Below the pieces are notes generated by a model. It searched no databases, was not told the DNA's origin, and was given only the letters and a program-made list of their open reading frames with translations. DNA of 64,000 bases from positions 33,492 to 97,491 of the forward strand of contig CAWAGQ010000001.1 of the NCBI GenBank assembly GCA_963781585.1, given 5' to 3'. The DNA comes from an uncultured Gemmatimonadaceae bacterium. Lineage in GTDB: Bacteria > Gemmatimonadota > Gemmatimonadetes > Gemmatimonadales > Gemmatimonadaceae. This document shows positions 238-63,780 of this stretch, in pieces (position 1 is the first letter of the stretch; the number at the start of each line of letters is the position of its first letter). Made by a program: the position numbers and the translations under genes.

Positions 238-1577
238 CGCCGCCCCGGCGCGGACGTGGCGTCGGCTACCTGCTCGCGGCGTCCGGCCTGGTCGGCGTGC
301 CCGCCCTGTTCGCCGTTTCGCCGCTGCGCAATGCCGTTACGGGGGCGCCGGTCGCGGCGTCGCTCCACCTTCCCGCCGGCTATCTGCTGCTCGCGCCCCT
401 GTCGGACCTGTTCGACGAGATATCCCTGCTCTCGGTCCGGCAGCATGTCGCGTTAGGCGTGACGATTCTGGTTGCGTATGTCGGGGTGCGCTGGTGGCGG
501 CGACGCCGGGATCCTCGGCCGTCGGTGTGGGCCGAGCTGGGTGGAGGGGCGGCACTGGCGGCGCTGGTATTCGCGCTCTATGCGGGCGTGACCCGCGCAC
601 CGCGCCCGATGGCGTCGCTGGCGGTGGACTCGGCCGAGCAGGTGGTGGTGGATTTTCACAGCCACACCAACGCGTCGCACGACGTGCGGCGAGATTTCAC
701 GCTGGCGCGAAATCGTGACTGGCACCGTGACGCGGGGTTCGACGTGGCGTTCGTTACCGACCACGTGGTGCCTAACGCGGACCGGCATCTGCCACCGCGG
801 CTGGCGGCGCCGGCCGGCCGCCCGGTCGTGCTGTATGGCGCGGAACGTGCCTGCCACGGCTCCCACCTGCTCCTGCTCGGCGCGGGGGTACGGGGCGCCG
901 CGCCGGACTGTGGCGATGCGGCGGAGCCGGAACTCGATGGGTGGGAGGAGGCCCCGGGGCCCTCGATCGCGCCCGTCACCATTCTCACCCTGCCGGACGG
1001 ACAGCCGGCGCAAAGCGCCCGGCGGGGTGTGCAAGGCATGGAACTGGTGGATGCGGCGCCGCGCGGACTCAATCAGCTCGACCGGGACCGCCCAGCGATT
1101 CTCCAGGCCGCGGAGCGAAGCGGCCTTGTTCTCCTCGCCGGCTCCAACAATCACGGCTGGGGACGCACCGCGGCCGCGTGGAATGTCATGACGATCCCGG
1201 GCTGGCGGTCGATGTCGGCGGACGCGCTGGAATCCGAGATACTCACCCGGTTGGCTGCCCGGTCACCGGATGCAGTCGAGGTCATCCAACGCCGCCGCGT
1301 GGCGGCCGGTGGATCCGCGATCCAGCTTGGTCTGACCGTGCCTGCGCTGGCGACCAATACCCTCCTGACGATGTTGCCGGCCGAACGGGTGTCGTGGTTG
1401 TGTTGGATCTGGGCCGCCTTCGCTCTGCCGTGGCTCGTCAGGCAGGCGCGCCGGATGCTGACCCTGGTGGGCAGGCGCCAGGTCAGGCTGGTCGCGGGGT
1501 GGCGGCCCGTCGCGGACCGACGCCCGGTTCGGGGAACCGTGAGGCCGCCCGCGGCGGGACCTGGCGCGATCGGGTAG
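234..1577 (+). CDS. Membrane-anchored PHP-domain (polymerase/histidinol phosphatase-like) metallo-phosphoesterase
   Basis: N-terminal TM helices, then PHP motifs DFHSHT, AFVTDH and GSNNHG (variant of GSDxH); C-terminal TM segment. Confidence 0.75.
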   Translation: MTPPRRGRGVGYLLAASGLVGVPALFAVSPLRNAVTGAPVAASLHLPAGYLLLAPLSDLFDEISLLSVRQHVALGVTILVAYVGVRWWRRRRDPRPSVWAELGGGAALAALVFALYAGVTRAPRPMASLAVDSAEQVVVDFHSHTNASHDVRRDFTLARNRDWHRDAGFDVAFVTDHVVPNADRHLPPRLAAPAGRPVVLYGAERACHGSHLLLLGAGVRGAAPDCGDAAEPELDGWEEAPGPSIAPVTILTLPDGQPAQSARRGVQGMELVDAAPRGLNQLDRDRPAILQAAERSGLVLLAGSNNHGWGRTAAAWNVMTIPGWRSMSADALESEILTRLAARSPDAVEVIQRRRVAAGGSAIQLGLTVPALATNTLLTMLPAERVSWLCWIWAAFALPWLVRQARRMLTLVGRRQVRLVAGWRPVADRRPVRGTVRPPAAGPGAIG

Positions 1578-1629
1578 TGCATCCCGATCGGCTGGGCTAA
1601 CATGCGAAGTCATCCCACAGGAGGCTTCG

Positions 1630-2235
1630 ATGAACAGCCGTCAGGCCGCCGCTGCCGCATTCCTTGCGACAGGATTTGCCATTGTGTCCGCGATTCTTCT
1701 CTTTGTGGAACCCGGCATGGGATTCTCGCAATTCGCGGACTACTTCGACCCAGCCAAAGTCGTCCCCAATCTGAATTCCACCCCGTGGCTCCTCGGTGAC
1801 CTGCTGTACCTTGGATTCGGCCTGGTCCTGACGTATCTCACCCTCGGCAGCGACGACCGCGTCCTTCGCGTGTCGGGCGCTGCTGCCGCCGTGTTGTTCT
1901 TCCTCATCGGCTGCATCGGCCGCATCCTGGCGCAGCTGCCGATCTTCATCAGCAGCGCCGATGCGCTGGACGTGGCGGTCCTGGGCGTGCTGGGGGTGCG
2001 GTTCGCCGTTCTCAAGACGACCGTCTTCGCGTTAGGCGTGTTTGCCTGGCGTACCACGGTGCCGGGCTCCGCCCTGGAGCGGGTCTCGCCGATCGGACGC
2101 GGCCTCGGCTACCTCGTCCTGGCCGCCAGCGCCGTGTTCGTGTTCATCTTCGTTCCGATTCCGCTGCTCATCATGGTATGGGCCGCGTGGCTGGCTGTGC
2201 AATTCGGGAGGATGCGCACGCCCGCGCCCGTCTGA
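1630..2235 (+). CDS. Hypothetical integral membrane protein (about 6 TM, possibly DUF4386-like)
   Basis: 201 aa, strongly hydrophobic; GAGG RBS-like motif at 1621-1625. Confidence 0.7.
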   Translation: MNSRQAAAAAFLATGFAIVSAILLFVEPGMGFSQFADYFDPAKVVPNLNSTPWLLGDLLYLGFGLVLTYLTLGSDDRVLRVSGAAAAVLFFLIGCIGRILAQLPIFISSADALDVAVLGVLGVRFAVLKTTVFALGVFAWRTTVPGSALERVSPIGRGLGYLVLAASAVFVFIFVPIPLLIMVWAAWLAVQFGRMRTPAPV

Positions 2236-3817: not shown

Positions 3818-4860
3818 GCGCGACGGTTGACGGCATCGGATTGCCCGAGGTGCTGGCGGGGGTCGTGGTGCTGGCGCTCAACGCCTACGTCCTCACGGGC
3901 GGCGCGGACTTCGGCGGCGGGGTGTGGGATCTGCTCGCGACAGGGTCACGGAAGCAGCGGCAGCGTGATCTGGTGGCGCGTGCGATCGGGCCGATCTGGG
4001 AAGCGAATCATGTCTGGCTGATCGTCGCGATCGTGGTACTGTTCACCGCCTTCCCTGGTGCCTTCGCGGCGATCACCGTCGTGCTGCACATCCCACTGAC
4101 GATCATGCTGATCGGCATCGTCCTGCGAGGTGCGGCGTTCGTTTTCCGGAACTACGGCAGCCGGGAGACCGCGTCGCAGCGCCGGTGGGAGCGGGTGTTC
4201 GCGGTGACGAGCACCCTCGCGCCGGTTTTCCTCGGCGTGAACGTGGGCGCGATCGCGTCGGGCGCGGTGGGGGCGCGGATCGGTTCCGACGGATTGCCGG
4301 TGAGTAGTGGATCATTTGTCGCGGGGTACGTGTGGCCGTGGCTGGCGCCGTTCCCGATTGCGGTGGGTGCGCTGTCGCTCGCGCTGTTCGCGATGCTGGC
4401 CGCGGTGTACCTCACCATCGAGGCGGACGAACCGGCCTTGCGCGCCGACTTCCGGCGCCGCGCGCTGGGCGCGGCGGGCGCGGTGATGGTGGTCGCGTTA
4501 GGCGGCCTGGCGGTGGCGCGGTCGGAGGCGCCGCGAATGCACCTCGGGCTGACCGGCGCCGCCTGGGCGCTTCCACTCCAGCTCCTGGTCGGACTGAGTG
4601 CGTGCACGACCCTGTTCGCACTCCTGGGACGGCGCTGGGCCCTGGCCCGCGTGGCCGCCGCGGTCCAGGCCTCACTGATGCTCTGGGGGTGGGCGCTGGC
4701 GCAGTATCCCTATCTCGTCCCCTCCGCAATCGGCATCCGGCCGGCGGCAGCGCCGGCTGTTACGCTGCGCCTCCTGTCGCTGGCTCTGCTCGGCGGCGCG
4801 GCGGTGCTGGTGCCCTCGTTGCTCTACCTCTTCCGCACCTTCGCGGCGGCGAAACGGTGA
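3814..4860 (+). CDS. cydB: Cytochrome bd ubiquinol oxidase subunit II
   Basis: GGADFGGG and IGPIWEANHVWLI motifs; ATGA overlap with cydA. Confidence 0.95.
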   Translation: MSATVDGIGLPEVLAGVVVLALNAYVLTGGADFGGGVWDLLATGSRKQRQRDLVARAIGPIWEANHVWLIVAIVVLFTAFPGAFAAITVVLHIPLTIMLIGIVLRGAAFVFRNYGSRETASQRRWERVFAVTSTLAPVFLGVNVGAIASGAVGARIGSDGLPVSSGSFVAGYVWPWLAPFPIAVGALSLALFAMLAAVYLTIEADEPALRADFRRRALGAAGAVMVVALGGLAVARSEAPRMHLGLTGAAWALPLQLLVGLSACTTLFALLGRRWALARVAAAVQASLMLWGWALAQYPYLVPSAIGIRPAAAPAVTLRLLSLALLGGAAVLVPSLLYLFRTFAAAKR

Positions 4861-4915: not shown

Positions 4916-7042
<2,127 letters not shown>

Positions 7043-7067: not shown

Positions 7068-10023
7068 ATGAGCCCACCCTCTTCCACCTATCGCCTCCAG
7101 CTCAGCCGGGAATTCCCATTCGCCCGCGTTGAGGACTTGATCCCCTACCTCAAGGAGCTGGGCGTCGGAGCCGTGTATCTCAGCCCCATCCTGCTGGCGC
7201 GCCCCGGCAGCACCCACGGATACGACATCTGCGACCACAACCGCATCAATCCGGAGCTGGGTGCCGAGGAGGGCTTCGAGGCGTTGTCCCGAGTGCTCCG
7301 CGCGGTGGACATGGGGTGCATTCTGGATTTCGTGCCTAACCATATGGGCGCGGATCCGCTCACCAACCCATGGTGGTGGGACGTGCTCGAAGAACGGACC
7401 CTCGTCTCCCTTCGGTCGCTACTTCGACATCGACTGGGAGCCGGTGAAGCCGGACCTCAAGGGCAAGGTGCTCCTCCCCGTACTGGGAGACCAGTATGGC
7501 CGCGTGCTGGAGCGGGGAGAGCTGCGGCTGGAATTCGCGCAGGGCTCCCCGGTCGTGCGCTACTTCGAGCATCGCTTTCCCATCAACCCGCGCATGGCGC
7601 CCATGGTGCTGGGTTACGGCGTCGAGAAGGGCCGCCTGCCCGGGTCGGAGAGCGAACCGCACACCATCGAGTTCCTGAGCATCCTCACCGCGCTGCGGAA
7701 CCTTCCCGGCTATCTGGAAACCGACGCGGCCAAGATCCGTGAACGGCAGCGCGAGAAGGAAGTCGCCCGGCGACGCTTGGCAGTACTGGCCGAGGAATCG
7801 ATTCCGGTGCGGACGTTCATCGACGCCAACCTGGCCGCGTTCAACGGAACGCCGGGCAACGCACGAAGCTTCGATCTGCTGCACGCGCTCCTCGAGAGCC
7901 AGGCGTATCGCCTCGCCTACTGGCGCACCGCCGGCCACGAGATCAACTACCGCCGGTTCTTCGACATCAACGGCTTGCTCGCGATTCGCGTGGAGCTGCC
8001 GGAAGTGCGGGAGGCCACCCATGGGCTGCTGCTGGATCTGATCCGCCGCGGCCGAGCGACCGGTGTGCGACTCGACCACGTGGACGGACTGTACGATCCC
8101 AAGGGATACCTGCACGCGTTGCGCGCGATGACGGCCGACGCGACGCGCGGCGGTAATGCGAAGCCGGAACAGGTCCCGGGCGACACCACCTATATGGTTG
8201 TGGAGAAGATCCTCTGCGGCGACGAGCGGTTGCGCGCCGACTGGCCGGTCGACGGGACCACCGGCTACGAGTTCCTGAACGATCTGAACGGCCTGTTCGT
8301 GGACCACGAAGGAGTGACGCGGCTGCAGCGACTGTACACGCGCTTCACCGGCCGAAGCGAGGCGCCGGACCGGGAGACCCGCGAATGCAAGCGACTCATC
8401 CTCGACACATCGATGGGCAGCGAGCTGAACGTCCTCGCCAATCTTCTGGACCGTCTGTCGGAGACCGACCGAACCAGCCGGGACTTCACCCTGGACACGC
8501 TCCGCGATGTCCTGCGCGAGACCATCGCGTCGTTCCCCAACTACCGCACGTACGGACGACGCGAGGGCTTCGCACTGGAAGACGTGGATACGGTGGACGC
8601 CGCGCTTGTCGATGCCATGCGGGAAAACCCCGCCATGGAAACGTCGAGCTTCGCCTTTCTTCGATCGATGCTGTTGCCCTTCGAGCCCGCATCGGAGCAG
8701 CCGCCCGGATCCTCGCTGTCGCGCGACGCGCGGCTGGACTTCGCGATGAAGTTCCAGCAACTCACCGGACCCGTGCAGGCGAAGGGAGTGGAGGATACCG
8801 CCTTCTATCGAGACGGTGCGCTCCTCTCGCTGTGCGAGGTTGGCGGGGATCCGTCGTCGACCGGCATGGATATCGGTGCGTTCCATCGGCGCCTGGATGG
8901 ACGACAGCGCGCCTTCCCCCGGGGGATGACGACAACCGCTACGCACGACACCAAGCGAGGTGAGGATGCGCGCGCCCGGCTCAATGTGTTGACCGAGATG
9001 CCCGAAGCCTGGCGGCGGGTCGTTCTCCGCCTGGCTCGGCTCATGACGCCGTGCCGCGCGTCGCTGCCCCCGGAAATTCCCACGCGCAACGACGAGTACA
9101 TCCTGTATCAATCCCTGGTGGGGTGCTGGCCGCTCGCGGCCGATGGCAAGCCCGTACCCGCCGACACGGAGCTGGTGGCGCGCGTGCGCCAATTCCTGCT
9201 CAAGGCAGCACGCGAAGCCAAGCTGCAGACCAGCTGGATCAACCAGAATCTCGAGTACGAGCGTGCGCTGGCGGACTTCCTGGATACGCTGTTGGGAGAG
9301 CGCCTGCGGTCGCGGTTTCAGCGGATCTTCTTCCCGTTCCTCACCACCTGCGCGCAGCTTGGAGCCGCCAACTCGCTCGCGCAGGTGGTGGCCAGGTGCA
9401 GCGCCCCTGGCGTACCGGATGTATTCCAGGGCACCGAAATCTGGGATCTGTCGCTCGTGGATCCGGACAACCGGCGGCCGGTGGACTACGCCCTGCGGAC
9501 GCGGTCGCTGGAGTCCTTCCGGATCTGGCTGGATCCGGCCGCGGACCCACCAGGGCGTAGCGAATTCGCCAGGGAGCTCCTCGCCGCCTGGCCGGACGGT
9601 CGCATCAAGCAGTATTTGCTCGGACGGTGTTTACGCTGGCGAGCGCACCATCCCGCGCTGTTTCTGTCGGGCGCGTACCGCCCCCTTGAATTCGAGAGCG
9701 GCGCCTCGTCTCCATGGATTGCCTGGGCGCGGGAGCACGGTGATGAGGCACTGGTCAACTGTTTCTGCACGCGGGCGACAGAGGTGAGCAGGGCTCTCGC
9801 GGGCGGCAATGACCGGCAGCCTCCACGGGCTCCGATGCTCGGTGACGCCCTGCAGGTGCCTGTGGAGTGGGCTGGCCGGGACGTCGTGCACCTCTTCACC
9901 GGCGCGCGCCATACCCTGCGGAGGGACGGAACCAGTTGCCGGGTGCCGTTCGAGTGGCTGACCGCGGAGTTTCCGGTGGCCTGGCTGTGGCTGGCGTCGC
10001 CCGGATCCCGATCCGGAGCCTGA
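7068..10023 (+). CDS. treY: Malto-oligosyltrehalose synthase, interrupted by a +1 frameshift at about 7390
   Basis: STYRLQ...GSTHGYD...DFVPNHM...WWWDVLE in one frame continues as [15 protein letters not shown]...NYRRFFDI...RLDHVDGL...VEKIL...THDTKRGED in the next. Removing one A from CTCGAAGAACGGA restores WDVLENG. Confidence 0.93.
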
Positions 10024-12968: not shown

Positions 12969-14645
12969 TCAGGGGAGCCCGTACGACACCGGTGGCACCG
13001 ACGCGCCGTGGCACCCTCTCGCCGGCCGCGGGGGCACGCGCAGATTGGCCACGGGCTGCACACCGGCCGAGTCGGCGGCAGAGCCGTCTGTCAGATCGTA
13101 GAGCCAGGCACCGACAGATCCGTCGTCGAGTTGCATGTCATGGTTCGCGCGCTCCACGTGGTAGAGCTCGTGCCCGATCTGGTTGGCACGGTGGAGGATG
13201 ATTGCTGGGTCGTTGAGCCGTCCCGCGGGGACGAAGACGATCCACACGCGGCGATGCCCATGCAGCAGATCGAGCTCGCGACCATACATATCGAGGTCGC
13301 GGGCGTGACAGGTACCGAGCAAGGTCGGAAAACCGGCGAGGCCGGCGCGCGGGCCGTACCGCGTCCAGACGTGCCAGCTGCTGTAGGGCACGTAGAACAC
13401 GTCGCCCGCCCGCGCGCGCTGGGCGACCGCTTCGAACACCGGTCGCACATCCTGGACGTAGTAGGGTGGGCGATGAATCACCAGCCAGCCTAACGAGGGC
13501 AGGGCGGCGAGCGATGCGACCGCCGTCGCGCGCCACAGGCGCTCCTGCCCGAACGTCAGCTGAATCCCTGCCGCAATGCCAGCCGCGAGAAGAAGGGCGA
13601 GCTGCGGCGCCAGGAAGACGCTCAGCCGGCCCCCGAAGGGATACTGCCGGAACGCCGCGGCCAGCAGCGCGATCGCCAGCGGACCGAGCAGGAGCATCAC
13701 CGAGCGCCGGTCGCGACGCCAGAGCTGCACCGCGCCCAGCGCGGCCACAAAGACGCACACGCGACCGATCGGGGCGTTCATCAGCCCGTCAAACTCGACG
13801 CGGATCATGTAGAACGGCCAGCGCAAGTCGGCGACGGACGTGGGCGGAATGGTCGGGAAACTGGCGCGCCAGGTGTTACTCAGGAATGCCAATGTGTCCG
13901 GTGCGACGTGGGCGCGCGCAAACAGGACTGACGCGACGGCAGAGGCCGCCCAGGTTGCGACAATCGTCAGGAGCCGCGCGCGCTCGTTGCCGCGCACGTG
14001 GACGGAGTCGAGTAGCAACACTGCGCCCGCGGCCGCGAGCACGAACACCGCGGGTAGCGAGAACCAGGGCGCCGCGACACCGCACACCGCAAGGGCGACC
14101 CGCGCCCGGGTGCTCCGCGCCCGCGGAATGAGCACGGCCAGCAGCGTGACGCCCGCCGAAATGGCGAGATCTCCCGCGTACTGCTTCCCTTGGGCGGCCC
14201 ACCAGATGGTGCGCGCCGAGAGCCCGAGCAGCAGAACGGGAAGAAACGCCAGGCTCGGCGCGAAATACGTCCGGGCCAGTCGTGCCGTGAAGATGAGGCC
14301 GGCGATCGTCATGGCGAGCGCGTAGGCGCGCAGCGCCAACTCGGCGGGACCGAACATCGCCACGGCGAGTTTCTCGATGGCGAGGAATCCGGGTGGGGCT
14401 ACCTGATCGAAGTCCAGGGGACGGTGCAGCAGCCCGCCCAGCGATCGGTCGACCACGTTCCGGGCGATCGCCATTTCGTCCACCCAGAGCGACGGATCGG
14501 AGAAGTACTGCCAGGCCGCCAGGGCGATCCCGATCAGGACCGCAACGACCAGGAGCCGATTCCCGTCGACCCACGAGCCGGACTGTTCCCGTTCGGCGGG
14601 AGCGGTCACCCCGTTCACGGGCGACACATTGCCTTCGACCTGCAC
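12969..14645 (-). CDS. GT-C-fold (ArnT/PMT-like) membrane glycosyltransferase
   Basis: SLWVDE motif after the first TM, then APPGF, ELALR and YPFGGR; multi-TM body with a soluble C-terminal domain. Start uncertain. Confidence 0.7.
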   Translation of the reverse strand: MQVEGNVSPVNGVTAPAEREQSGSWVDGNRLLVVAVLIGIALAAWQYFSDPSLWVDEMAIARNVVDRSLGGLLHRPLDFDQVAPPGFLAIEKLAVAMFGPAELALRAYALAMTIAGLIFTARLARTYFAPSLAFLPVLLLGLSARTIWWAAQGKQYAGDLAISAGVTLLAVLIPRARSTRARVALAVCGVAAPWFSLPAVFVLAAAGAVLLLDSVHVRGNERARLLTIVATWAASAVASVLFARAHVAPDTLAFLSNTWRASFPTIPPTSVADLRWPFYMIRVEFDGLMNAPIGRVCVFVAALGAVQLWRRDRRSVMLLLGPLAIALLAAAFRQYPFGGRLSVFLAPQLALLLAAGIAAGIQLTFGQERLWRATAVASLAALPSLGWLVIHRPPYYVQDVRPVFEAVAQRARAGDVFYVPYSSWHVWTRYGPRAGLAGFPTLLGTCHARDLDMYGRELDLLHGHRRVWIVFVPAGRLNDPAIILHRANQIGHELYHVERANHDMQLDDGSVGAWLYDLTDGSAADSAGVQPVANLRVPPRPARGCHGASVPPVSYGLP

Positions 14646-17145: not shown

Positions 17146-19803
17146 ATGAGGGACGAAGCCGCAGACCGCTCCACGTCCGCCGCCTCGCGGCTCGGTGAGG
17201 CGCTGGCCGGTCGCTACGCCATCGAGCGCGAGCTGGGCGAAGGCGGGATGGCGACGGTCTACCTGGCCCGCGACCTCAAGCACAACCGACACGTCGCGCT
17301 GAAGGTGCTCAAGCCGGAGCTGGCAGCGGTGCTGGGTTCGGAGCGCTTCCTCGCCGAGATCCAGGTGACGGCGAACCTGCGGCATCCGCACCTTCTGCCG
17401 CTGTTCGATTCGGGCGAGGCCGGAGGGCTGCTCTTCTACGTGATGCCATACGTGGAGGGCGAGAGCCTCCGCGCGCGGCTCGACCGCGAGAAGCAGCTGC
17501 CGGTGGACGCGGCGGTGAAGATCGCGGTCGCAATCGCCGGGGCGCTCGACTACGCCCACCGGAACGGCGTGATCCATCGTGACCTCAAGCCGGCCAATAT
17601 CCTGCTCGAGGACGGGGAGCCGGTGCTGGCGGACTTCGGCATCGCGCTGGCGATCTCGAACGCCGGCGGCGAGCGGGTCACCCAGACCGGACTCTCGTTA
17701 GGCACGCCGCAGTACATGAGCCCCGAGCAGGCGACCGGCGACCGGGTCATCGACGGCCGGTCGGATCTCTATTCGCTGACCGCGGTGCTGTACGAGATGC
17801 TGGTGGGCGACGCCCCGCACATCGGCAGCACGGCGCAGACGATCATCGCCAAGGTGATCTCCGAGCGGCCCACCAGCGTGCGGGTGTTGCGACCAGCGGT
17901 GCCGCCGGCGCTGGCGGCCGTGATCGAGCGGGGGCTGGAGAAGCTTCCGGCCGATCGCTGGGCCACCGCGCACGAATTCGCCGACGCGCTCAAGGCGGCG
18001 GCCGCGCTCCAGACCGGAGCCATCGCGAGCGCCCCGGCGCTGTCGTCACCTCGCCGCCGCCAGACGAACTGGATTCCGTGGGCGGTCGTGGCCGCGGTCA
18101 TTGTCGCCGCCGTGCTCTGGAACCGGTTTTCCTCTCGCGGCGGCGAACCGCGGAGCGCGGTGCGCTTCCCGCTCACCCTGGCCCCCAACGAACGCATCGC
18201 CACCACCATGGGAAGCACGGTGACGATCTCGCCCGACGGCAGGTTGATTGCGTACAGCGGCGTGGGGAGCGACGGACTGCAGCGGCTGTTCGTGCGCACG
18301 CTCAGCGAGATCCGCGCGCGTCCGGTCCCCGGGACGGAGGACGCCGAGCGTCCGTTTTTTTCGCCCGACGGCCGGTGGATCGGTTTCTTCGCGCGGGGTC
18401 AGCTGGGCAAGGTCCCCGTGAGCGGCGGGGCGCCGGTAGCGATGCCGTCCCTCCGCCTCATGAACGGCGCAAGCTGGGGTCCGAACGATATGATCGTCGT
18501 CTCGACCGCCGATCACCTCAGCGTGCTGTCCGCCAATGGCGGGGCGCCGCGCCAGCTCACCCAGCTCGATTCCGCCGCCGGGGAGACGAGCCAGCGGTGG
18601 CCTCGCGTGCTCGACGACGGCAAGACCATCCTGTACACGAGCTGGCGCACGAATCTCGCCGACGCCCGCATCGCCGTCGCCTCGATTGAGGGAGGCCCGA
18701 CGACGATCCTGGACCTCCCGGGAACCTTCCCGTTAGGCGTGCTCGACGGCCAGCTGGTGTACGCCAGCGCCACCGGCGCGCTGATGGCGGTCCCGTTCGA
18801 TACCCGCCGGATGCGCCCGAGCGGTGCGCCGGTCGTGGTCGGGGACGCGGTGGTGCTCGATTCCGACGGCGCCGCCAAGGCCGAGCTCTCCCCGAGCGGA
18901 TCGCTCATCTACCAGATCGGTCGGGCCACCATGCAGATCGTCCTCGCCGACCGCAACGGCCAGAGCCGGACCGTGATCGCCGAGGCGCGGCGCTACGAGT
19001 TCCCGCGCTTCTCGCCCGACGGCAAGCGCGTGGCCTTGACCGTCACGACCGATACGTCTGCCGACGTGTGGATCGTCGACCTGGCCAGCGGAATCCGCAC
19101 GCGGCTCACCACCAGCGGGACCGCCAACGATCGTCCCGAATGGTCGGCCGACGGACAGCGCGTGCTCTACGATTCCAATCGCAGCGGGGCGTACGCCCTC
19201 TGGTGGCAGCCCGCCGACGGAACGGGCGCGCCGCAAGTACTGCTCGGCCTGCCCGGCACCGACATCCTGGAAGGCGTGGTGTCGCACGACGGCCGCTACC
19301 TTGTCTATCGGACCGGCCCCGGCGACATCTGGTATCGGCGGCTCGACGGCGACACGACGTCGCATCCGATCGCAGCGTCCGCCGGCGCGGAGTACGGGCC
19401 CCGCTTGTCGCCGGACGATCGCTGGGTGGCGTATTCATCGGACGAGTCCGGCGAACAGCAGGTGTACGTGCGACCATTTCCGTCGTTAGGTGCGCGGTAC
19501 CAGGTTTCGGTGGACGGCGGCTCGGAGCCGGTCTGGTCGGCCGACGGCAAGCGATTGTACTATCGGCGCAACCGGCTGCTCAAGGCGGCGACGTTCACCA
19601 CCACGCCGGCGTTCGCGGTGACCTCGCGCGAGGAGCTGTTCGAGGGCGACTTCATCTTCCAGGCGGTGCACGCCGAGTACGACGTGGCGCCCGACGGCGC
19701 GCACTTTCTGCTGCTCAAACTGGCCGGCTCGGACGTACAGACGATCGTGGTGCAGAACTGGATCGCCGAACTGCGTGCGCGGACTGCCGCGGGTCCGGGC
19801 TGA
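17146..19803 (+). CDS. Ser/Thr kinase with TM and PD40/TolB-like beta-propeller sensor
   Basis: Kinase motifs (HRDLKPAN, DFG, YMSPE), TM segment WIPWAVVAAVIVAAVLW, repeated SPDG/WSADG units. Confidence 0.93.
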   Translation: MRDEAADRSTSAASRLGEALAGRYAIERELGEGGMATVYLARDLKHNRHVALKVLKPELAAVLGSERFLAEIQVTANLRHPHLLPLFDSGEAGGLLFYVMPYVEGESLRARLDREKQLPVDAAVKIAVAIAGALDYAHRNGVIHRDLKPANILLEDGEPVLADFGIALAISNAGGERVTQTGLSLGTPQYMSPEQATGDRVIDGRSDLYSLTAVLYEMLVGDAPHIGSTAQTIIAKVISERPTSVRVLRPAVPPALAAVIERGLEKLPADRWATAHEFADALKAAAALQTGAIASAPALSSPRRRQTNWIPWAVVAAVIVAAVLWNRFSSRGGEPRSAVRFPLTLAPNERIATTMGSTVTISPDGRLIAYSGVGSDGLQRLFVRTLSEIRARPVPGTEDAERPFFSPDGRWIGFFARGQLGKVPVSGGAPVAMPSLRLMNGASWGPNDMIVVSTADHLSVLSANGGAPRQLTQLDSAAGETSQRWPRVLDDGKTILYTSWRTNLADARIAVASIEGGPTTILDLPGTFPLGVLDGQLVYASATGALMAVPFDTRRMRPSGAPVVVGDAVVLDSDGAAKAELSPSGSLIYQIGRATMQIVLADRNGQSRTVIAEARRYEFPRFSPDGKRVALTVTTDTSADVWIVDLASGIRTRLTTSGTANDRPEWSADGQRVLYDSNRSGAYALWWQPADGTGAPQVLLGLPGTDILEGVVSHDGRYLVYRTGPGDIWYRRLDGDTTSHPIAASAGAEYGPRLSPDDRWVAYSSDESGEQQVYVRPFPSLGARYQVSVDGGSEPVWSADGKRLYYRRNRLLKAATFTTTPAFAVTSREELFEGDFIFQAVHAEYDVAPDGAHFLLLKLAGSDVQTIVVQNWIAELRARTAAGPG

Positions 19804-19813
19804 CGAGATCTCG

Positions 19814-22511
19814 TTACTCCGCTCGCAACGCCTCGGTCGGACTGATCTGCACCGCCCGCCGAGCGGGAAGCACGCCGGCCAGCAGCGCCACCACGAGCAG
19901 CGCGACCGCCACGCCGCCCAGCACGAGGGGATCGACGGCGCTGGTCTCGAACAGCCAGGGCTCGATCCAGTGCCCGCCGGCGATGACCAGCGCCAGACCT
20001 AATGCGACCCCCGTCGCCGCGAGGGACGTGCCGCTGGCCACCACCATGCGCACGATCTGAGCGTCAGTCGCGCCGATGGCGTGCCGGATCCCGATCTCGC
20101 GCGTGCGCCAGGCGACCATGCTGGACATCAGGCTGTAGAGCCCGAGCAGCGCCACAACGAGCGCCAGTCCGCTGCTCAGGCCGAAGGTCACCATGCCGAG
20201 GCGCAGCGGATGCATCTCGCCGTCGAGGGACTCGCGCAGCCCCTTCACGTCGACCGAGCGGATCGAGGGATCGACGCGCAACATCGTCTGCTGCAGGGTC
20301 GACGACGACACCGGCGATGACCGCGTCGGCCTGACGAGTAGCGTGGCGCCGCCGAACAGATGCTGCTGCCCCAGTGGCATGTAGTACTGGAGCGACGGCT
20401 TGTCGCGCAGCCCTACGCGGTGCACGTCCTCCACCACCCCGACCACGCGGGCGCACGGCGCGGTCCTGAGCCCGATGCCCGCGCACTGTCCGATCGCGTC
20501 GCCGTTCGGCCAGAGCGAGCGCGCCATCGTCTCGCCGACAATGAGGACCGGCTCCGTTCCCTCGCGATCCTGCGCGGTGAACACCCGGCCGCGCAGCAGA
20601 CGGGTGCCGATGGTCGCGAAGTAATCCGGTCCCACGGTGCTGGCGAACGGCCCGCCTCCCGGCAGCGTGGGAATCGAGTCGCGCCCCGATATCCACACGG
20701 TCGCCGAGAACGTCCCGCCGTCGAGGGGCAGGCCGATCGCAATCGCAGCGCGCTCGACGCCCGGCAGGTGGCGCACGGCATCGACCAGCCGCCGATACAC
20801 GTCACGCTCGTTGTCGAGGTACCGGACAATCGCAGCCGAGGTATATGTCGTCCAGGGCGGCAGCTGGGCGTTCGCGGTGAGCACGCGGTCCCGGTCCACG
20901 CCGAGGTGGAGCGCGCCCACGCGCTCCAGACTGCGCAGGAAGAGCCCCGCGCACACCAGCAGCACCACCGAGAACGATGCCTGCACGAGGGTGAGTGCCG
21001 CGCGCGTGCGCGTACTTCCGGCGCCACCCGCCTGCGTCCCGGCGCGCAGCATCGCGACGAGTCGCGGATTGACTCCCTGCACAGCGGGGACAATGCCGAT
21101 GCATAGCGCCGTCGCGCCCACGAGCAGCACCGCGGCAATGAGCAACCTGGCGTCGAGGAGCGAGAAGCTCCAGGTCGCGTCGCCGGCGAACAGCGCGTGC
21201 TGCACCAGTGGCGCCGTGATCTGCACCACCCACAGGCCCACGGCCCCTCCGGCGACCGCGAGGAATGCACCTTCGAACGCGAACAGCCGCACCAGACGCC
21301 CCCGGCCCGAGCCGAGGGCGATGCGGACCGCCAGCTCGCGCCGGCGCCGCGCGAGGCGCACCAGCAACAGGTTCACCACGTTGGCGAGCGCGATCAGCAG
21401 GATCACCAGCGACACGCCGGCCAGCCAGCGCGCCATCGTCGCCTCGAACGGCTCGCGACCCGTGTCGTCATACCGGATGGGAGCCGCTCGGAGCGCAGCT
21501 TCGCGGTACCACTTCGGCGCGGCGTCGCTCGTGCGTCGGAACACGGCGGCTGCCTCCGCGCTCGCCGCGCCAAGGGTGACGCCGGGGCGCAGGCGGCCGA
21601 GGATGTTCCAGTTCGTCGTACCGGCTCGGCGCGAATCGGCGAGCGTCCAGACGTCGACGCGCCGCAGCTCGGTGCCCGAGAAGTCGTCAGGCAGGACGCC
21701 CACCACGGTAGAATGCGCGTCGCCGACGTCGATGGTCCGTCCCAGTACGTCAGGGTCGCCGCCGAACTGCCGGCGCCACACGGTCTCGCTGATCACTGCC
21801 AGCGGTCCGGCGCTCGCCGCGTCGTCGTCGGCCGAGAAGAGGCGTCCGAGGAGCGGCTGGGCGCCGAGCAAGGGGAAGAATGCGCCCATCGTGGCGCCCG
21901 CGCGGAGCCGTCGCGCGGACGTGCCTCGACCCACCAGCTCGGGAACCACGCGGTACGCGGCCACGGTCTGGAAGCTCTGCATGCCATCACGCAGGGCGAG
22001 ATACACGGGGTAAGGGATCCACGACGACGTGCGCTCGCCCGTGACCGGCTCCGTCACGGTGCCGTATATCCGTGCCAGGGTTCGACGGTTGCGTGATATG
22101 AGCGGGGTCCCGCAGCAGCAGGCGGTCCACGAGGTTGAACGCAGTCACGTTCGCCCCCACCGCCAGGCCTAACGTCAGTACGATGAAGAACGAGGGCAGG
22201 GGATCGCGCGCCAGACCACGGACCGCGTATCGTGCGTCCTGCAGGAGTGCCTCCCATCGCTCGCGCATGCGCATGACCTGGTTCCTCTCTCTGGCGGTGG
22301 AATAGAGTGCCCGCACTGTCCCGGCCTCCTGCGCGAAGAGCCGCAGCGCCTCGGCGCGCGCGGTGGCCTCGCTGGAGCCCTCGGACATGAGTTGCGCCGC
22401 GCGGAGCTCGACGTGGAGCCGCATCTCGTCATCGACGTCCCGCGCCGCGTCGCGCCAGCGGAAGTCGGTGAGTCGAAACAGCCGGCGGATGCCGGGTCTG
22501 AGCGGTGCCAT
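19814..22511 (-). CDS. ADOP-family duplicated orphan ABC permease (MacB/FtsX-like), +1 frameshift at about 22079
   Basis: N-terminal prefix domain DVDDEMRLHVE..QDARYAVRGL, then ANVVNLLL..RRRELAVRIALG and RTREIGIRHAIGA..PTEALRAE. Removing one base from the GGG at 22078-22080 joins the halves (QPSNLARIYGTVTEP). Confidence 0.9.
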
Positions 22512-43913: not shown

Positions 43914-43960
43914 ATCAGACTGGAGAACCAGAGGGCGGATGAGGGATCGCTGATCCCCGC

Positions 43961-44295
43961 CTAACGCCCCAATTCGTAGATGCGCTCCATCAACACCCAT
44001 TTCGCGCCGCGCGCGGCCCAGGGCAGCGCCTGCTGATACCGCCACATCAGCGTCTCCCACTCCTGCACCCGCGGGTTCGCGCGGTCGGCCGCCGCTTTCG
44101 CCTCGAACGAAAACGGGTCGGACACCTCCATGATCATGAACACACGGTTGCCGGTCCGGTAGATCGAAAGTTGTTCGATCCCCGCGTCGCGCAGACTGCG
44201 CTCGATTTCCGGCCAGACGCGGACATGATGGCGCTCGTATTCGGCGATCAGCGCCGGATCGTCCTTGAGGTCGAGCGCCAGGCAATAGCGTCGCA

Positions 44296-44296: not shown

Positions 44297-47251
<2,955 letters not shown>

Positions 47252-48838: not shown

Positions 48839-48969
48839 GACCGACCGGTGACACCGGGCGCAGGCCTCGCCGACCCGGTTCGATCGCGATGGTCGCTGTT
48901 ACTGGGCCAGCTTCTGCCAAGTCCTTTACCTGAGCCCGCCTAACCCGGTCCGGTTACCAAGGCACTCGC

Positions 48970-55117: not shown

Positions 55118-56911
55118 CTACTTGAGTCTCGGATTCGTCGACCGCGGCGCCTTCTCGCATTCCGGCCACGTGCCGCCGCCACGGCCGCCCCGCCCCCCGC
55201 GACCGAACGCGGCCGCCTGAGCGGCCAGGTCCACGCGATCGAGCGGAATGCGCGTGGGATCCTCCGAAGCGAGATAGACCAGCATTGCGGTCAACGTGGC
55301 GTTGTACTCGAGGTCGTCGAACACGACCTTGTCATAGGTGTCGCGCTCGGTGTGCCAGGTAACGGTGCTGTAATCCCACGGCGTGGCACCCAATCCGAAG
55401 GCCGGCAGGCCGTGGCAGCCGAACGAGAAGTCGTCGCTTCCGCCGCCGGCCGGGCGTCCCGATTGCACCGGATTCCCGCCGTTGATCTGTTCGCGGAACT
55501 CGGTCGGAATCTTCGACAGCCAGTCGTTGATGTGCTCGGGTGCGTGCACCAGCCCCGCGCCGCCGACGCTCCGGATGCGCCCCGTGCCATTGTCCTGGTT
55601 GAACAGCGCCTGGAGCCCCTTGAGCACCTCTGGGTGATCCTCGGTGAACGCCTTGGAGCCCACCTCGCCTTCTTCCTCACCGCTCCAATGACCCACCAGG
55701 ATGGTGCGCTTCGGGTGGGGATAGACCTTCTTCAGGATGCGCATCGCCTCGAGCATGGTGAGCGTGCCGGTGCCGTTGTCGGTGGCGCCTGACGAGCCGT
55801 CCCACGAATCGAAGTGGGCCGACATCATCACGTACTCATCCGGATGCTCGGTCCCGCGCATGCTGGCAATCACGTTGTAGACGGGCTGCTCGCCCAGCAG
55901 CTTCCCGTCGAGGTTGAGTCGGAGCCTGGGCCTGTCGCCCTGTTCGGTGAGCCGGGCCACGAGGCCATAGTCCTCGCAGTCGAGGGCGATGGCCGGAGTC
56001 TTCGTGTTGTAGGTCTCGAAGACCTCCATTGCCCCCCACCCGGTATTGAGCGCGCCGCCGCCGAACCCCCCGCCAAACCCGCCGCGCCCTCCGCCAGCCT
56101 GTGGATTCTGCAGCGCTTCCACCATCTGCGCGGGCGACGTGCCGCCGCCCATCCGCCAGGCGAGCTTCGGCCGCGAGGTGATGATTCCACCCGCGCCCCC
56201 CTGCTCGAGGCGGACGCCGAGCTCGCCGCCGCCTAACGCGGACGAATATCCGGTGCCGCGTACGCCGGCCCGGGCGCCGCTCGACGGATCACTGGGATCA
56301 GCGCGGAAACTGGCCCAGTCACGCTGGATGGAGACCATCAGCGAATCCATCCGCGCCTTCGATTCCGGCGTTGCGTTCGCCGCCCAGTCGTCCTGGGGCC
56401 GGCACGTCGGCAGCGGCGCCGAGATCATGACGAGCTTTCCCTTCGCCTGCGGCAGCCACTGCACGAACTCGGTGCTGTCCTTGAAACGAGGCAGGATGAT
56501 CGTCTCGAGCGTGACGTCCCTGCCGCCGGTGCCCGGACTGTACCCCACCATCTGTCCCTGCAGCGTCCGCAGCCGCGGCGCCACCAGGTCGATGTGCGAG
56601 GGGCCGCGATCCCATCCGCGCCAGGTACCGTACTGCTCCTCCTTCGCGTCCACGCCCCACGTCTTATAGAGACTCACCAGCCAGTCCTGGGCGCGTTTGA
56701 TGTTGGGCGTGCCCATGAGGCGTGGTCCGAGCGAGTCGAAGAGCGCGTGCGCCTCGGCAAAGAGGTGCGTGCTGTCCATGCCCACCGCGTAGATCTGCCT
56801 GAGCACGGGATCGCTGGTGGGGAAAGACTGCGCCGCAAGCGGCGTGATCGAGCCGGCGACGAACGCTGTCGCGGCCGTGACGGAGAGGAGCGATCGATTC
56901 ATACTGAGCAT
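55118..56911 (-). CDS. Secreted M28-family metallopeptidase
   Basis: Signal peptide, SAHFDSW, GATDNGTG, GEEEG, NQDNG, GSDD, WHTERDT. Confidence 0.92.
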   Translation of the reverse strand: MLSMNRSLLSVTAATAFVAGSITPLAAQSFPTSDPVLRQIYAVGMDSTHLFAEAHALFDSLGPRLMGTPNIKRAQDWLVSLYKTWGVDAKEEQYGTWRGWDRGPSHIDLVAPRLRTLQGQMVGYSPGTGGRDVTLETIILPRFKDSTEFVQWLPQAKGKLVMISAPLPTCRPQDDWAANATPESKARMDSLMVSIQRDWASFRADPSDPSSGARAGVRGTGYSSALGGGELGVRLEQGGAGGIITSRPKLAWRMGGGTSPAQMVEALQNPQAGGGRGGFGGGFGGGALNTGWGAMEVFETYNTKTPAIALDCEDYGLVARLTEQGDRPRLRLNLDGKLLGEQPVYNVIASMRGTEHPDEYVMMSAHFDSWDGSSGATDNGTGTLTMLEAMRILKKVYPHPKRTILVGHWSGEEEGEVGSKAFTEDHPEVLKGLQALFNQDNGTGRIRSVGGAGLVHAPEHINDWLSKIPTEFREQINGGNPVQSGRPAGGGSDDFSFGCHGLPAFGLGATPWDYSTVTWHTERDTYDKVVFDDLEYNATLTAMLVYLASEDPTRIPLDRVDLAAQAAAFGRGGRGGRGGGTWPECEKAPRSTNPRLK

Positions 56912-58511: not shown

Positions 58512-59490
58512 ATGCCGACTCGTGATCGTAATCCCGGGCGTCGCCTGCGCCGCAGCGCGCTCCTCCTGCTGCTCCTCCTCGCGCCGCGGCTGGCTGCCCA
58601 GGCGCGTCACGAGCTGATCCGCGGCCGCGTCACGACCGACAGCGGCACGGCGATCGCGGAGGCGGAGGTCCTGGCGACGATGGCGCCGAATCGCGACGTC
58701 TTTCGTGGGTCGACGGACTCGACCGGCCGCTACGAAATCGACGTGCCACAGGGCATGGGCGACTACCTGCTGTACATTCGGGCCGAAGGACGGAAGACGT
58801 TTCGCCGGCGCGTCACACGGAGCGGCGCCGACTCGGTCTTCATCGTGGATGCTGTGCTGGGGCCTCCCGGCGTCGCCCGACCCGGTGCTCTACTACGTGC
58901 GCGGGTTCGACCCGTCGTCGCGCCGCTTCGAGTATGCAGTGAACCCGCGCTTCGGCGACTCCCGTCCGCAGGTCACCGCGTCCTCCCAGCCGTTTCGTGT
59001 CTCGATCGACATATCGTTAGGCCTGACCGGCAACATCCAGAACCAGCAGGCGGCGTACTACCTGCGGCCACTGCGCAGCGCCCCCGGCCGACGCGCCCCC
59101 GCCGACTCGATCCTGGCACGGATCCGCTCGACGGGCGCCAGTGCCCTTGCCCCCTACTATTGGCTCCTCCAGAACGCCGACTCGCTCCTCCTCTCCCCGG
59201 AGCAGTACGCCGCACTGGTCGATGCCAACGCGCGCTATCAGCGCATGGTGGATTCCACTTGGATGGCGCTGGCGACCGACCTGGCGGCCGTGCCCGACGA
59301 ATTCGATCCGGCCGGCGTGCTGGCGCGGATCAGCAAGGGACAGCGTGACGCGTTCGCAGTGGCGAGGGAATTCGAGGTCGTCGGCGGCATCCTGAATCCG
59401 ATCCAGCTCCGCCTGGTTCCGGAGTTCATCTCGCGTGGCGTCGAGCAGGCGCGAAAGAACCCGGCTGGGACGCCGCCCCGGCCGCCGTAA
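58512..59490 (+). pseudogene. Carboxypeptidase-regulatory-like-domain protein; N- and C-terminal parts joined out of frame
   Basis: Signal peptide plus IRGRVT..TDSTGRY..GDYLL domain to about 58860, then a different frame WGLPASPDPVLYYVRGFDP..VNPRFG..PFRVSIDISL to the stop at 59490. Confidence 0.65.
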
Positions 59491-62513: not shown

Positions 62514-62523
62514 GCTCCTCCGG

Positions 62524-63780
62524 CTACCCGAGCTTCTCGTCCAGCCGCAGCACCGCGCCGAGCAGCACGTTCGCCCCGTTCACCACGTCCTCATCGCGCG
62601 TGAACTCGCGTGGCGAATGGCTGATGCCGCCCACGCTCGGCACGAACAGCATTCCGGCTGGACAGATCGTCGCCAGGTTCTGGGCATCGTGGCCGGCGCC
62701 GCTCGGCATGGTCAGCGACGAGAGCGCGAGCGCGGCGGCGGCGGCCGCGGTCGCTTCGCGAACCCGCGGATCGGTGTACGCAGCCACGGAGTTCATCGTC
62801 GGACGGAAGTCGACGATCGTCCGTGTTTCGGCCGCAATCCGCTCAGCCTCGGAGGTGATGGCCGCGAACAACGCCTCGACCCGCGCCGGATCGAGATCAC
62901 GAAGTTCCAGGGTGGCGGTGGCGCTGCCGGCGATCACGTTAGGCGCCGCCGGAGAGAGGGTGAGCCGGCCCACGGTCCCCACCTGGCGCCCGGGCATCGA
63001 CGTCACCACCTGGTTGACGGCGTCCACGAACCGCGCGGCGGCGAGCAGCGCGTCGTGGCGGTCGGCCATGGGCGTGGTCCCGGCGTGCGACGCGACTCCC
63101 TCGAACGTGACGTCCCAGTAGTGGATCCCGACGATGCCCTCCACGATCCCGATATCCGCGCCGCCGCGCTCCAGCGTCCGCCCCTGCTCGATGTGCAGCT
63201 CCAGATACGCGGCGATGCTTCCGGCGGGACGCACCGCACCGCGGAGCCTGCCGGGATCGCCCCCCAGACGCCGGATCCCGTCGCCGATTGTGTAGCCGCT
63301 GACCGCGGTGAGCGACAATTCGTCGACGGAGAGCTTGCCGGCCATCGCCTTGCTCCCGAGGATGCCTCCCTCCTCGTTCTGGAAGTTCACCACCTCGAAC
63401 GGGCGCCGGAGCCGGGTGGCGCGCTCCGCCAGGCGGCGGGCCACCTCGAGCGCCGCCAGAACACCTAACGACCCATCGAACCGGCCTCCATCGGGAACGG
63501 TGTCGGTGTGCGAGCCCATCATGATGGGCTTCGCGCGCTCCGGTGGCGCGCCGGGCAGGCGCCCGATGGTGTTTCCGGCGGCGTCCACGCGCACCGTCAG
63601 CCCGGCCTCGCGCATCCAGCTCATCACGACCTCGCGGGCGCGGACGTCTTCGTCGCCGTACGCCGGCCGGTTCACGCCGCCGCCTGGAGTGACGCCGATG
63701 GTCGCCAGTCGCCCCAGGTCGTCGAGCAGGCGCTCGCCGTTCACACGCGGGGCGTCAGGGAGGTCGGGCGGATTGGTCAT
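62524..63780 (-). CDS. M20-family Zn amidohydrolase (allantoate/N-carbamoyl-amino-acid hydrolase type)
   Basis: GSHTDTVPDGGRFDG, NEEG, ELHIEQG, HAGTTPM, SGAGHDA, GISHSP. Confidence 0.93.
   Translation of the reverse strand: MTNPPDLPDAPRVNGERLLDDLGRLATIGVTPGGGVNRPAYGDEDVRAREVVMSWMREAGLTVRVDAAGNTIGRLPGAPPERAKPIMMGSHTDTVPDGGRFDGSLGVLAALEVARRLAERATRLRRPFEVVNFQNEEGGILGSKAMAGKLSVDELSLTAVSGYTIGDGIRRLGGDPGRLRGAVRPAGSIAAYLELHIEQGRTLERGGADIGIVEGIVGIHYWDVTFEGVASHAGTTPMADRHDALLAAARFVDAVNQVVTSMPGRQVGTVGRLTLSPAAPNVIAGSATATLELRDLDPARVEALFAAITSEAERIAAETRTIVDFRPTMNSVAAYTDPRVREATAAAAAALALSSLTMPSGAGHDAQNLATICPAGMLFVPSVGGISHSPREFTRDEDVVNGANVLLGAVLRLDEKLG

Follow-up and report, generated by a model that had tools for sequence, protein, structure and literature searches.

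CGTTAGGCR, an abundant DNA word common to an uncultured Gemmatimonadaceae bacterium and Gemmatirosa kalamazoonensis, as a possible uptake or self-recognition sequence

Hyper-abundant short words have opened a view on how bacteria tell their own from foreign DNA, and to our knowledge words of such strength are limited to a few lineages, namely Neisseriaceae, Pasteurellaceae and cyanobacteria. DNA uptake sequences (DUS) and uptake signal sequences (USS) are short asymmetric words that occur in hundreds to thousands of copies, about once per 1–1.5 kb, and DNA that bears them is taken up preferentially by competent cells; those of Neisseria typically form inverted pairs at gene ends, where they act as terminators, and have ComP as their cognate receptor. 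Other words, such as Chi and the FtsK orienting polar sequences (KOPS) or SpoIIIE recognition sequences (SRS), are read by a DNA-processing machine and are co-oriented with replication, the skew of KOPS/SRS exceeding 80% and switching at ori and dif. The core of an integron attC site, GTTRRRY, lies in an imperfect inverted repeat at cassette boundaries, near the integrase gene. DUS and USS visibly shape the proteome, according to the accessible part of one study (PMC2817400). The cyanobacterial word HIP1 is described in the accessible text of another as 15- to 300-fold over-represented with conserved sites (PMC5861425), and in a partly accessible third it is tied to methylation-dependent transformation, proposed as an uptake sequence and found to overlap the sites of two methyltransferases (PMC13756078). 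Here we describe a word of this kind, the octamer CGTTAGGC, in a 64-kb stretch of DNA from an uncultured Gemmatimonadaceae bacterium (GenBank assembly GCA_963781585.1, contig CAWAGQ010000001.1, positions 33,492 to 97,491; hereafter the window) and on the megaplasmids of Gemmatirosa kalamazoonensis. A reading of the window made from its sequence alone had singled out the octamer as a candidate lineage-specific DNA signal.

The window contains 18 exact copies of CGTTAGGC, nine on each strand, at every position given in the sequence-only reading, and the six one-mismatch copies with a GTTAGG core that it had listed are also present (Table 1). The density is approximately one exact copy per 3.6 kb. 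Dinucleotide-preserving shuffles of the window gave a mean of 1.05 copies and a maximum of 5, with none of 100 reaching 18, and no other 8-mer of the window was as strongly over-represented under order-1, order-2 and order-3 Markov models. After masking of motif-like sites in the background, the expected number of copies was 0.33 (order 2) or 0.14 (order 3). The GC content, assumed earlier to be about 69%, was computed as 67.9%. Genes were modeled from codon log-odds (45 genes, 89% coding); this gene model and that of plasmid 2 below were built in this analysis and are approximate. A codon-preserving null had been suggested as a check, and the enrichment survives it: when synonymous codons were permuted inside each gene, a conservative procedure that keeps every protein and the codon usage of every gene, 2000 shuffles yielded a mean of 1.93 copies and a maximum of 6. 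Each of the 24 GTTAGG/CCTAAC hexamers in the window is within one mismatch of CGTTAGGC. The flanks of the octamer show little beyond a G at position +1 (12 of 18 copies).

The coding context of these copies indicates that the signal resides in the DNA. The gene calls placed ten copies as NCG-TTA-GGC, five in antisense orientation as G-CCT-AAC-G and two at stop codons as CGT-TAG. The copy at 22167 lies outside the gene model but reads in frame as ACG-TTA-GGC in an open reading frame (ORF) at 21987-22511(-), and with this eleventh Leu-Gly case the proposed division into 11 Leu-Gly, 5 Pro-Asn and 2 stop-codon copies is right. TTA, the rarest leucine codon, accounts for only 17 of the 2009 leucine codons in the called genes; 10 of the 17 are inside the exact word and 14 are part of TTA-GG[CT], which answers the earlier question of what fraction of TTA codons the motif holds. 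Among synonymously compatible sites, TTA was used at 10 of 22 NCG-Leu-GGC and CCT at 5 of 10 G-Pro-AAC-G. A contrast between two kinases was likewise seen as described, with TCG-TTA-GGC in the SLGTP motif of one (17146-19803) and GCC-CTC-GGC in the ALGTP motif of the other (24659-27118). Pfam searches identified ordinary and unrelated genes, including cytochrome bd, four Ser/Thr kinases, peptidases, PadR, MacB-like permeases and a sugar-utilisation cluster; the Pfam matches included no methyltransferase, integrase or competence gene. Since the enrichment survives the codon null and both orientations as well as stop codons are used, the claim of a DNA-level signal rather than a protein motif holds. 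The evidence supports CGTTAGGC as a lineage-restricted DNA-level signal and not a peptide or codon-usage artefact.

A tblastn search of PLSDB with the BNR protein of the window led to two megaplasmids of G. kalamazoonensis KBS708. In 50-kb samples of the two, 33 and 37 copies of CGTTAGGC were found among 39 and 42 TTAG/CTAA tetramers, respectively. The complete plasmid 2 (NZ_CP007130.1; 1,040,503 bp, 72.8% GC) carries 701 copies, 335 on the plus and 366 on the minus strand, or one per 1,484 bp, and they include 701 of its 891 TTAG/CTAA tetramers. Against a masked-background expectation of 3.6 or 0.55 copies, this is an enrichment of at least 200-fold. Two of the copies are counted twice owing to a terminal repeat in the record: its first 2,555 bases are the same as its last 2,554 (1037950-1040503) at no less than 90% identity over the full length, which looks like an untrimmed circular overlap. 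The word had been proposed as a chromosome-wide site. It is not specific to a chromosome, as both megaplasmids are filled with it, and it does recur, at higher density, in a second Gemmatimonadaceae organism. The base following the word on plasmid 2 is G in 320 copies, A in 268, C in 90 and T in 23. Intergenic copies have a purine at +1 in 102 of 124 cases, where A otherwise makes up 15% of bases, and C is enriched at +3 (71 of 124); because the purine preference holds in intergenic DNA, the word is at least CGTTAGGCR. Two short tandem arrays on plasmid 2 have the word in their repeat unit, one with a 12-nt unit inside a gene (108118-108166) and one with a 15-nt unit between genes (697547-697592).

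On plasmid 2, for which 794 genes were modeled, the word is accommodated in more than one reading phase. Positions 2, 5 and 8 fall at wobble sites in 299 sense and 164 antisense copies, a second phase is used by 21 sense (GTT-AGG) and 35 antisense (CTA-ACG) copies, 58 of the 794 stop codons are supplied by the word (43 CGT-TAG and 15 GCC-TAA), and 124 copies are intergenic. In the window only positions 2, 5 and 8 were at wobble sites, for copies of both orientations (15 of 74 compatible sites versus 0 of 69). The other phases on plasmid 2 attribute this pattern to sampling and differing codon cost, and a restriction to one reading phase was rejected. As many as 372 of the 390 TTA codons of plasmid 2 are inside NGTTAGGC. 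TTA is the codon used at 300 of the 952 NCG-Leu-GGC sites, CCT at 164 of the 300 G-Pro-AAC-G sites and CTA at 35 of the 167 NGC-Leu-ACG sites, so that in the TTA and CCT classes 31–55% of the synonymously compatible sites are filled. The dipeptide Pro-Asn is over-used as well (598 observed versus 372 expected, 1.61x), ranking fourth among 400. As an effect independent of the word, leucine before a GGC codon is encoded by CTC about ten times as often as by CTG (e.g. 487:61 and 1283:112), although the overall CTG:CTC ratio is 12647:17466; this is a strong codon-pair effect.

The specificity of the signal is graded by position. At x-Leu-GGC sites of plasmid 2, the share of TTA is 31.5% after CG, 13.6% after TG and approximately 2.5% after GG or AG, and it is zero after any dinucleotide without a final G. 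Two one-mismatch variants stand out, TGTTAGGC with 85 copies and CGTTGGGC with 150 copies versus 44.6 expected. Central one-mismatch neighbours are depleted, as seen for CGCTAGGC (13 versus 33.5 expected) and CGTAAGGC (1 versus 6.8 expected).

The range of the word was examined in a scan of GTDB species genomes that used the window's DUF979 protein as query and returned at least 80 loci; the closest among the matches listed is 72% identical. Thirteen loci among the matches listed are of Gemmatimonadota type (12 labelled Gemmatimonadota and one labelled 'unidentified bacterium', 68% identical), and in this thin sampling they contain 3 copies of CGTTAGGC in 177,984 bp. All 80 loci among the matches listed contain 11 copies in 1,368,912 bp. 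The word is thus dense in the window organism and in Gemmatirosa and sparse in these 13 loci, as expected of the lineage-specific signal that had been claimed. No comparable 'dialect' octamer was found in the other Gemmatimonadota loci among the matches listed, the candidates being clustered intergenic repeats in one locus (L047) and an Asp-Glu codon word in another (L012). The repeats in L047, from a Gemmatimonas metagenome-assembled genome, lie at 9112-9184 and 19018-19165, are built on ..TACTGGGGTCAGAG.. and include some inverted pairs; they are a REP-like element unrelated to CGTTAGGC. A megablast search of window positions 30000-50000 against PLSDB returned two short matches, and the window does not belong to any plasmid in PLSDB.

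Homologous genes were compared to assess individual sites. The M28 peptidases of the window and plasmid 2, which are 70% identical, have none of three word sites in common, and the residues at these sites differ (ALG versus AIG, LPNA versus LVHA, and an APN insertion). The kinases are 46% identical and have one site in common (CCG-TTA-GGC), and at a second site TTA in the window corresponds to TTG on plasmid 2. Overall, in alignable homologues at 46–70% identity, the common sites represent 1 of 3 sites of the window and 1 of 8 of plasmid 2. Judging from these alignments, word sites appear to be gained and lost and to be able to override protein sequence.

The distribution of the word over the replicon shows no polarity with respect to replication other than that due to gene orientation. 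The ori of plasmid 2 near 630 kb and its ter near 80 kb were inferred from weak skew, with cumulative GC skew, gene-orientation skew and motif skew running parallel and each weak. On this basis the leading strand carries 384 of the 701 copies (54.8%). Sense and antisense copies stand at 218:122 in leading-strand genes and 145:92 in lagging-strand genes (Fisher p 0.48), and since this ratio is equal on both replication strands, the small leading bias follows gene orientation. In the window, a balance of 9:9 has a probability of 0.019 (P of 9 or fewer of 18) under a 75% skew. The earlier argument that strand balance speaks against polar Chi or KOPS sites is therefore borne out over an entire 1.04-Mb replicon. 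A polar octamer, GTTCACCA, is visible in the same window, with 12 copies on the plus strand and none on the minus strand in genes of both orientations (Table 1; pooled order-2 expectation 2.2). It is a candidate Chi/KOPS-type signal. Its 12:0 distribution suggests that the window probably lies within one replichore, and this gives meaning to the 9:9 balance of CGTTAGGC. On plasmid 2 the complement of this polar octamer, TGGTGAAC, is found 36 times on the leading and 17 times on the lagging strand; its skew is not the strongest of the words on that plasmid.

Spacing and placement were examined as well. The coefficient of variation of the spacing on plasmid 2 is 0.908, slightly more even than random placement (0.998 ± 0.037); that of the window is 0.69, and 8% of random placements are as even. 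Copies per plasmid-2 gene follow a Poisson distribution by length, with 441 genes lacking a copy versus 436 expected. Within genes, enrichment is confined to the last tenth because of the stop-codon copies. Intergenic DNA of plasmid 2 has one copy per 526 bp in convergent (3') regions, one per 813 bp in tandem regions and one per 1,584 bp in divergent regions. Motif-free islands were considered as foreign DNA and rejected, as the longest gap on plasmid 2 measures 10.2 kb, a size that random placement produces as well (p 0.50). The plasmid has almost no repeated or insertion sequence-like DNA.

Taken together, CGTTAGGCR is a genome-wide DNA word common to the window organism and G. kalamazoonensis. 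A sequence-specific force on DNA generates and maintains it in spite of codon preference and even of amino-acid conservation. This force is indifferent to strand, replichore, gene and replicon, fills a third to half of the compatible sites and alters proteins.

Modification of the word was considered as well. Single-molecule real-time (SMRT) kinetics detects 5-methylcytosine (5mC) poorly, and a restriction-modification or BREX system methylates its target, which in the genome of the host is as a rule neutral or avoided. The SMRT methylome of G. kalamazoonensis contains three N6-methyladenine (m6A) motifs, RGATCY, ATGCAC and CCAGN7TCA, and the paper reporting the genome and methylome does not mention CGTTAGGC (PMC3974934). 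As none of the published motifs matches, an m6A target was rejected; the modification option raised from the sequence is weakened in its m6A part and left standing for 5mC. For a restriction-modification or BREX target there was likewise no match in this methylome, and an enrichment of at least 200-fold is the reverse of avoidance. In the broader literature searched no report of such a word was found outside the known families, and among the matches listed, occurrences of the octamer itself were limited to primers and unrelated sequences.

The signature is one known from uptake sequences and from HIP1, which favors an uptake or self-recognition word. By this analogy, CGTTAGGCR could plausibly function in DNA uptake or self-recognition, in the way of a DUS or USS and of HIP1 as now discussed, a reading that we prefer but hold tentatively. 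A protein of the DNA-uptake or transformation route would bind duplex DNA bearing the word, and alleles that gain a word would be taken up and recombined more often than alleles without it. Copies would then pile up wherever coding constraints allow, at about one per 1.5–3.6 kb on both strands and on every replicon. The binding specificity of such a reader protein would be C > T >> G/A at position 1, an obligatory G at position 2 and a purine at +1.

A number of observations weigh against an uptake word. The sample is one 64-kb window and the megaplasmids of one strain, consisting of the complete plasmid 2 and one 50-kb piece of plasmid 1. No competence gene was among the Pfam matches, no exact copy in the window is fully intergenic (versus 124 of 701 on plasmid 2), and the literature searched reports neither uptake sequences nor GTTAGGC together with Gemmatimonad names. 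Close pairs on plasmid 2 are not above chance (42 gaps under 100 bp versus about 46 expected), and inverted hairpin pairs there are rare, with only a few found (e.g. positions 220550 and 445821). By the counts on plasmid 2, the TTA class is approximately ten times more enriched over baseline than the CCT, CTA and GTT-AGG classes, so one per-site advantage does not fit all classes. One-mismatch variants of plasmid 2 other than TGTTAGGC and CGTTGGGC are at or below expectation, and this near-variant profile fits strong per-site selection equally well as drive. All the layout features are equally expected of a very abundant intracellular binding site.

Such an array of intracellular sites for an abundant DNA-binding protein, involved in nucleoid structuring or otherwise and with each site kept by selection (cf. 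Xu et al. on HIP1), is possible but rather doubtful. Extreme enrichment without polarity, an even distribution among genes and slightly regular spacing fit it equally, the depletion of central one-mismatch neighbours is as expected under active maintenance of each site, and one site is common to kinases that are only 46% identical. HIP1 itself is argued to be selected with a nucleoid-related role in the accessible part of its description (PMC5861425). Most sites in homologues are not common (1 of 3 and 1 of 8), which points to turnover and not to site conservation, although the divergence is high, and the density peak in 3' intergenic DNA is without obvious structural meaning. Alternatively, biased repair or gene conversion could have produced the word neutrally, with a sequence-specific mismatch enzyme correcting near-matches to CGTTAGGC, much as very-short-patch (VSP) repair enriches CCWGG in E. 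coli. A full word that is enriched beside depleted central neighbours, and a force that overrides amino acids, agree with this idea. It is nonetheless unlikely, since the correction would have to run to A/T at three positions and to G/C at five, from transitions and transversions alike, and we know of no repair enzyme that corrects in such mixed directions. In addition, G-CCG-AAC-G persists beside G-CCT-AAC-G (104 versus 164 on plasmid 2, 5 versus 5 in the window), and an enrichment of at least 200-fold is far above the effect commonly attributed to VSP repair.

The remaining explanations fit the data less well. A Chi-like recombination hotspot or self marker for a RecBCD/AddAB-type nuclease would agree with the word being an asymmetric 8-mer embedded in coding DNA, and the window density of about one per 3.6 kb is near that commonly given for E. 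coli Chi. We consider it very unlikely because the word has no replication polarity, being 9:9 in the window, with the 384 of 701 leading-strand copies of plasmid 2 explained by gene orientation, while a polar word is visible in the same window (GTTCACCA, 12:0); the enrichment is also far above that of Chi sites as commonly known. The Chi/KOPS reading was ruled out on polarity, and the recombination option of the sequence-only reading is weakened in so far as it was of the Chi type. An origin by deamination of a methylated site (CGTTGGGC/GCCCAACG, G to A at position 5), with the product kept where synonymous, would account for the restriction of window copies to sites with position 5 at wobble (15 of 74 versus 0 of 69) and for the counts of G-CCC-AAC-G (0), G-CCG-AAC-G (5) and G-CCT-AAC-G (5) in the window. 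In a mutation-selection equilibrium model, TTA does not exceed 6.8% of NCG-Leu-GGC sites even when the hotspot is unlimited, whereas the window has it at 10 of 22. The supposed precursor is itself enriched on plasmid 2 (TTG at 99 of 952 sites versus about 1.7% elsewhere; CGTTGGGC 150 versus 44.6), and other phases are used there (35 CTA-ACG, 21 GTT-AGG). The model and the enrichment of the precursor refute a deamination hotspot, to which we give almost no weight. Just as little credence is due to a translation or peptide effect (the context of TTA, or a Leu-Gly or Pro-Asn peptide) or to integron attC core sites. Most copies do read NCG-TTA-GGC in frame, but the antisense (5 in the window, 214 on plasmid 2), intergenic (124) and stop-codon (58 on plasmid 2) copies cannot act in this way, and the purine at +1 holds in intergenic DNA. 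The match of GTTAGGC to the integron core GTTRRRY, which had been pointed out earlier, is a literal one, yet a coincidence, as the copies sit in frame in ordinary genes with no cassette structure around them.

Table 1. Positions of the word, its one-mismatch copies and two further recurrent words in the window.
Feature	Position	Strand	Context
exact, sense	451..458	+	GCG-TTA-GGC (Ala-Leu-Gly), gene 234-1577(+)
exact, antisense	770..777	-	G-CCT-AAC-G (Pro-Asn), gene 234-1577(+)
exact, sense	2030..2037	+	GCG-TTA-GGC, gene 1630-2235(+)
exact, sense	4496..4503	+	GCG-TTA-GGC, cytochrome bd subunit II gene 3814-4860(+)
exact, sense	13488..13495	-	TCG-TTA-GGC, gene 12969-14645(-)
exact, sense	17696..17703	+	TCG-TTA-GGC, SLGTP motif of Ser/Thr kinase 17146-19803(+); plasmid-2 homologue TCG-TTG-GGC
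exact, sense	18731..18738	+	CCG-TTA-GGC, kinase 17146-19803(+); sole site common to Gemmatirosa plasmid-2 homologue
exact, sense	22167..22174	-	ACG-TTA-GGC, ORF 21987-22511(-), N-terminal piece of split MacB-like permease
exact, stop codon CGT-TAG	28048..28055	-	gene 28050-29753(-)
exact, antisense	31266..31273	-	G-CCT-AAC-G, S9 peptidase gene 30061-32802(+)
exact, antisense	34681..34688	+	G-CCT-AAC-G, M1 peptidase gene 32828-34780(-)
exact, sense	37403..37410	-	TCG-TTA-GGC, DUF969 gene 36977-37747(-)
exact, antisense	39143..39150	+	G-CCT-AAC-G, BNR/sortilin-like gene 37770-41018(-)
exact, stop codon CGT-TAG	43959..43966	-	rhamnose mutarotase gene 43961-44296(-)
exact, sense	46245..46252	-	GCG-TTA-GGC, short-chain dehydrogenase gene 45606-46388(-)
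exact, sense	56231..56238	-	GCG-TTA-GGC (Ala-Leu-Gly), M28 peptidase gene 55118-56911(-); 70%-identical plasmid-2 homologue GCC-ATC-GGC (Ala-Ile-Gly)
exact, sense	59015..59022	+	TCG-TTA-GGC, gene 58849-59490(+)
exact, antisense	62937..62944	+	G-CCT-AAC-G, M20 peptidase gene 62524-63780(-)
one mismatch, CGTTAGGG (position 8)	5656..5663	-	
one mismatch, GGTTAGGC (position 1)	7334..7341	-	outside gene calls
one mismatch, CGTTAGGT (position 8)	19484..19491	+	sense TCG-TTA-GGT
one mismatch, GGTTAGGC (position 1)	39051..39058	-	sense TGG-TTA-GGC
one mismatch, GGTTAGGC (position 1)	48938..48945	-	outside gene calls
one mismatch, CGTTAGGT (position 8)	63463..63470	-	sense TCG-TTA-GGT
GTTCACCA	19593, 21371, 30282, 36384, 41526, 42928, 46119, 57773, 60239, 62578, 63385, 63981	+	
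CGAATTCG	9561, 16192, 17973, 25234, 27448, 31815, 48370, 59298		palindrome

Several other features of the window were noted. The palindrome CGAATTCG has eight sites, about three times the order-2 expectation, while plasmid 2 has only four and shows no enrichment. The sugar-utilisation cluster at 43961-52287 (amidohydrolase, dehydrogenases, racemase and fucosidase) has tblastn matches grouped at 31.8-39 kb of plasmid 2 and includes the highest identity of the window to that plasmid (78%); it partly overlaps large motif-free gaps in both (window 46245-56231, plasmid 2 36577-43239). Within it a gene of the mandelate racemase/enolase superfamily is split into overlapping ORFs for the C-terminal and N-terminal domains (50982-51629 and 51613-52287, minus strand). 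Its plasmid-2 homologue, 69–78% identical by tblastn, is a single ORF of 433 aa, and the split gene is either a pseudogene or the result of a frameshift or sequencing error. A second split gene encodes the MacB-like permease and lies downstream of PadR (22518-22859); its pieces are at 19814-22057 and 21987-22511 (minus strand), and the upstream ORF at 21987-22511 encodes the N-terminal transmembrane helix followed by an unrelated tail.

Gemmatimonadota are a phylum plentiful in soil, seldom brought into culture and genetically intractable, and we know of no mechanism of genetic exchange, and of no competence, uptake bias or receptor, described for them. By analogy with the known systems, and with yet more reserve than for the uptake or self-recognition function as such, we propose that soil Gemmatimonadaceae related to Gemmatirosa may be naturally transformable and tag their own DNA with CGTTAGGCR, which would make it a new uptake-sequence family with a receptor unrelated to ComP, or that the word may serve a new kind of self-recognition machine. 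If the word is an uptake tag, transformation would shape genomes in this phylum, and adding the word to constructs could render Gemmatirosa transformable. Since a cultured type strain with a finished genome bears the word, direct testing is possible. Whatever its function, the word is a practical marker that assigns contigs to the clade and flags foreign DNA, and it explains the odd local codon use, namely almost every TTA codon, a large number of CCT and CTA codons and, on plasmid 2, 58 of the 794 stop codons.

Compared with the known systems, CGTTAGGCR most resembles the uptake sequences. It is like DUS and USS in its density (one per 1.48 kb on plasmid 2), in its hundreds of copies far above expectation, in its nearly equal presence on both strands without replication polarity (9:9 and 335:366), in being restricted to a family, in occupying coding DNA in several frames with enrichment in 3' intergenic DNA, and in reshaping proteins (the Pro-Asn excess and the residue differences) with graded positional specificity. 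It differs from them in its sequence and phylum, in a core of 8–9 bp versus 9–12 bp, in the rarity of inverted terminator pairs and in that most one-mismatch variants are not enriched. With HIP1 (GCGATCGC) it has in common a hyper-abundant octamer found inside and between genes and restricted to a phylum or family. HIP1 is a palindrome, whereas CGTTAGGC and GCCTAACG are not self-complementary, as had been pointed out from the sequence. Sites of two methyltransferases overlap HIP1, by the accessible part of the report (PMC13756078), whereas CGTTAGGC matches none of the three m6A motifs of the Gemmatirosa SMRT methylome, and site conservation is low for CGTTAGGC, although the organisms compared are far more diverged than the genomes for which HIP1 conservation was demonstrated. 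Chi (E. coli GCTGGTGG) and the KOPS/SRS of FtsK/SpoIIIE are also asymmetric 8-mers scattered through coding DNA, but CGTTAGGC is not co-oriented with replication and is more enriched than they are by one to two orders of magnitude. Finally, GTTAGGC fits the degenerate GTTRRRY of integron attC/attI sites, but the copies of CGTTAGGC come without the attC inverted repeat, cassette array or integrase context and lie in frame in housekeeping-type genes.

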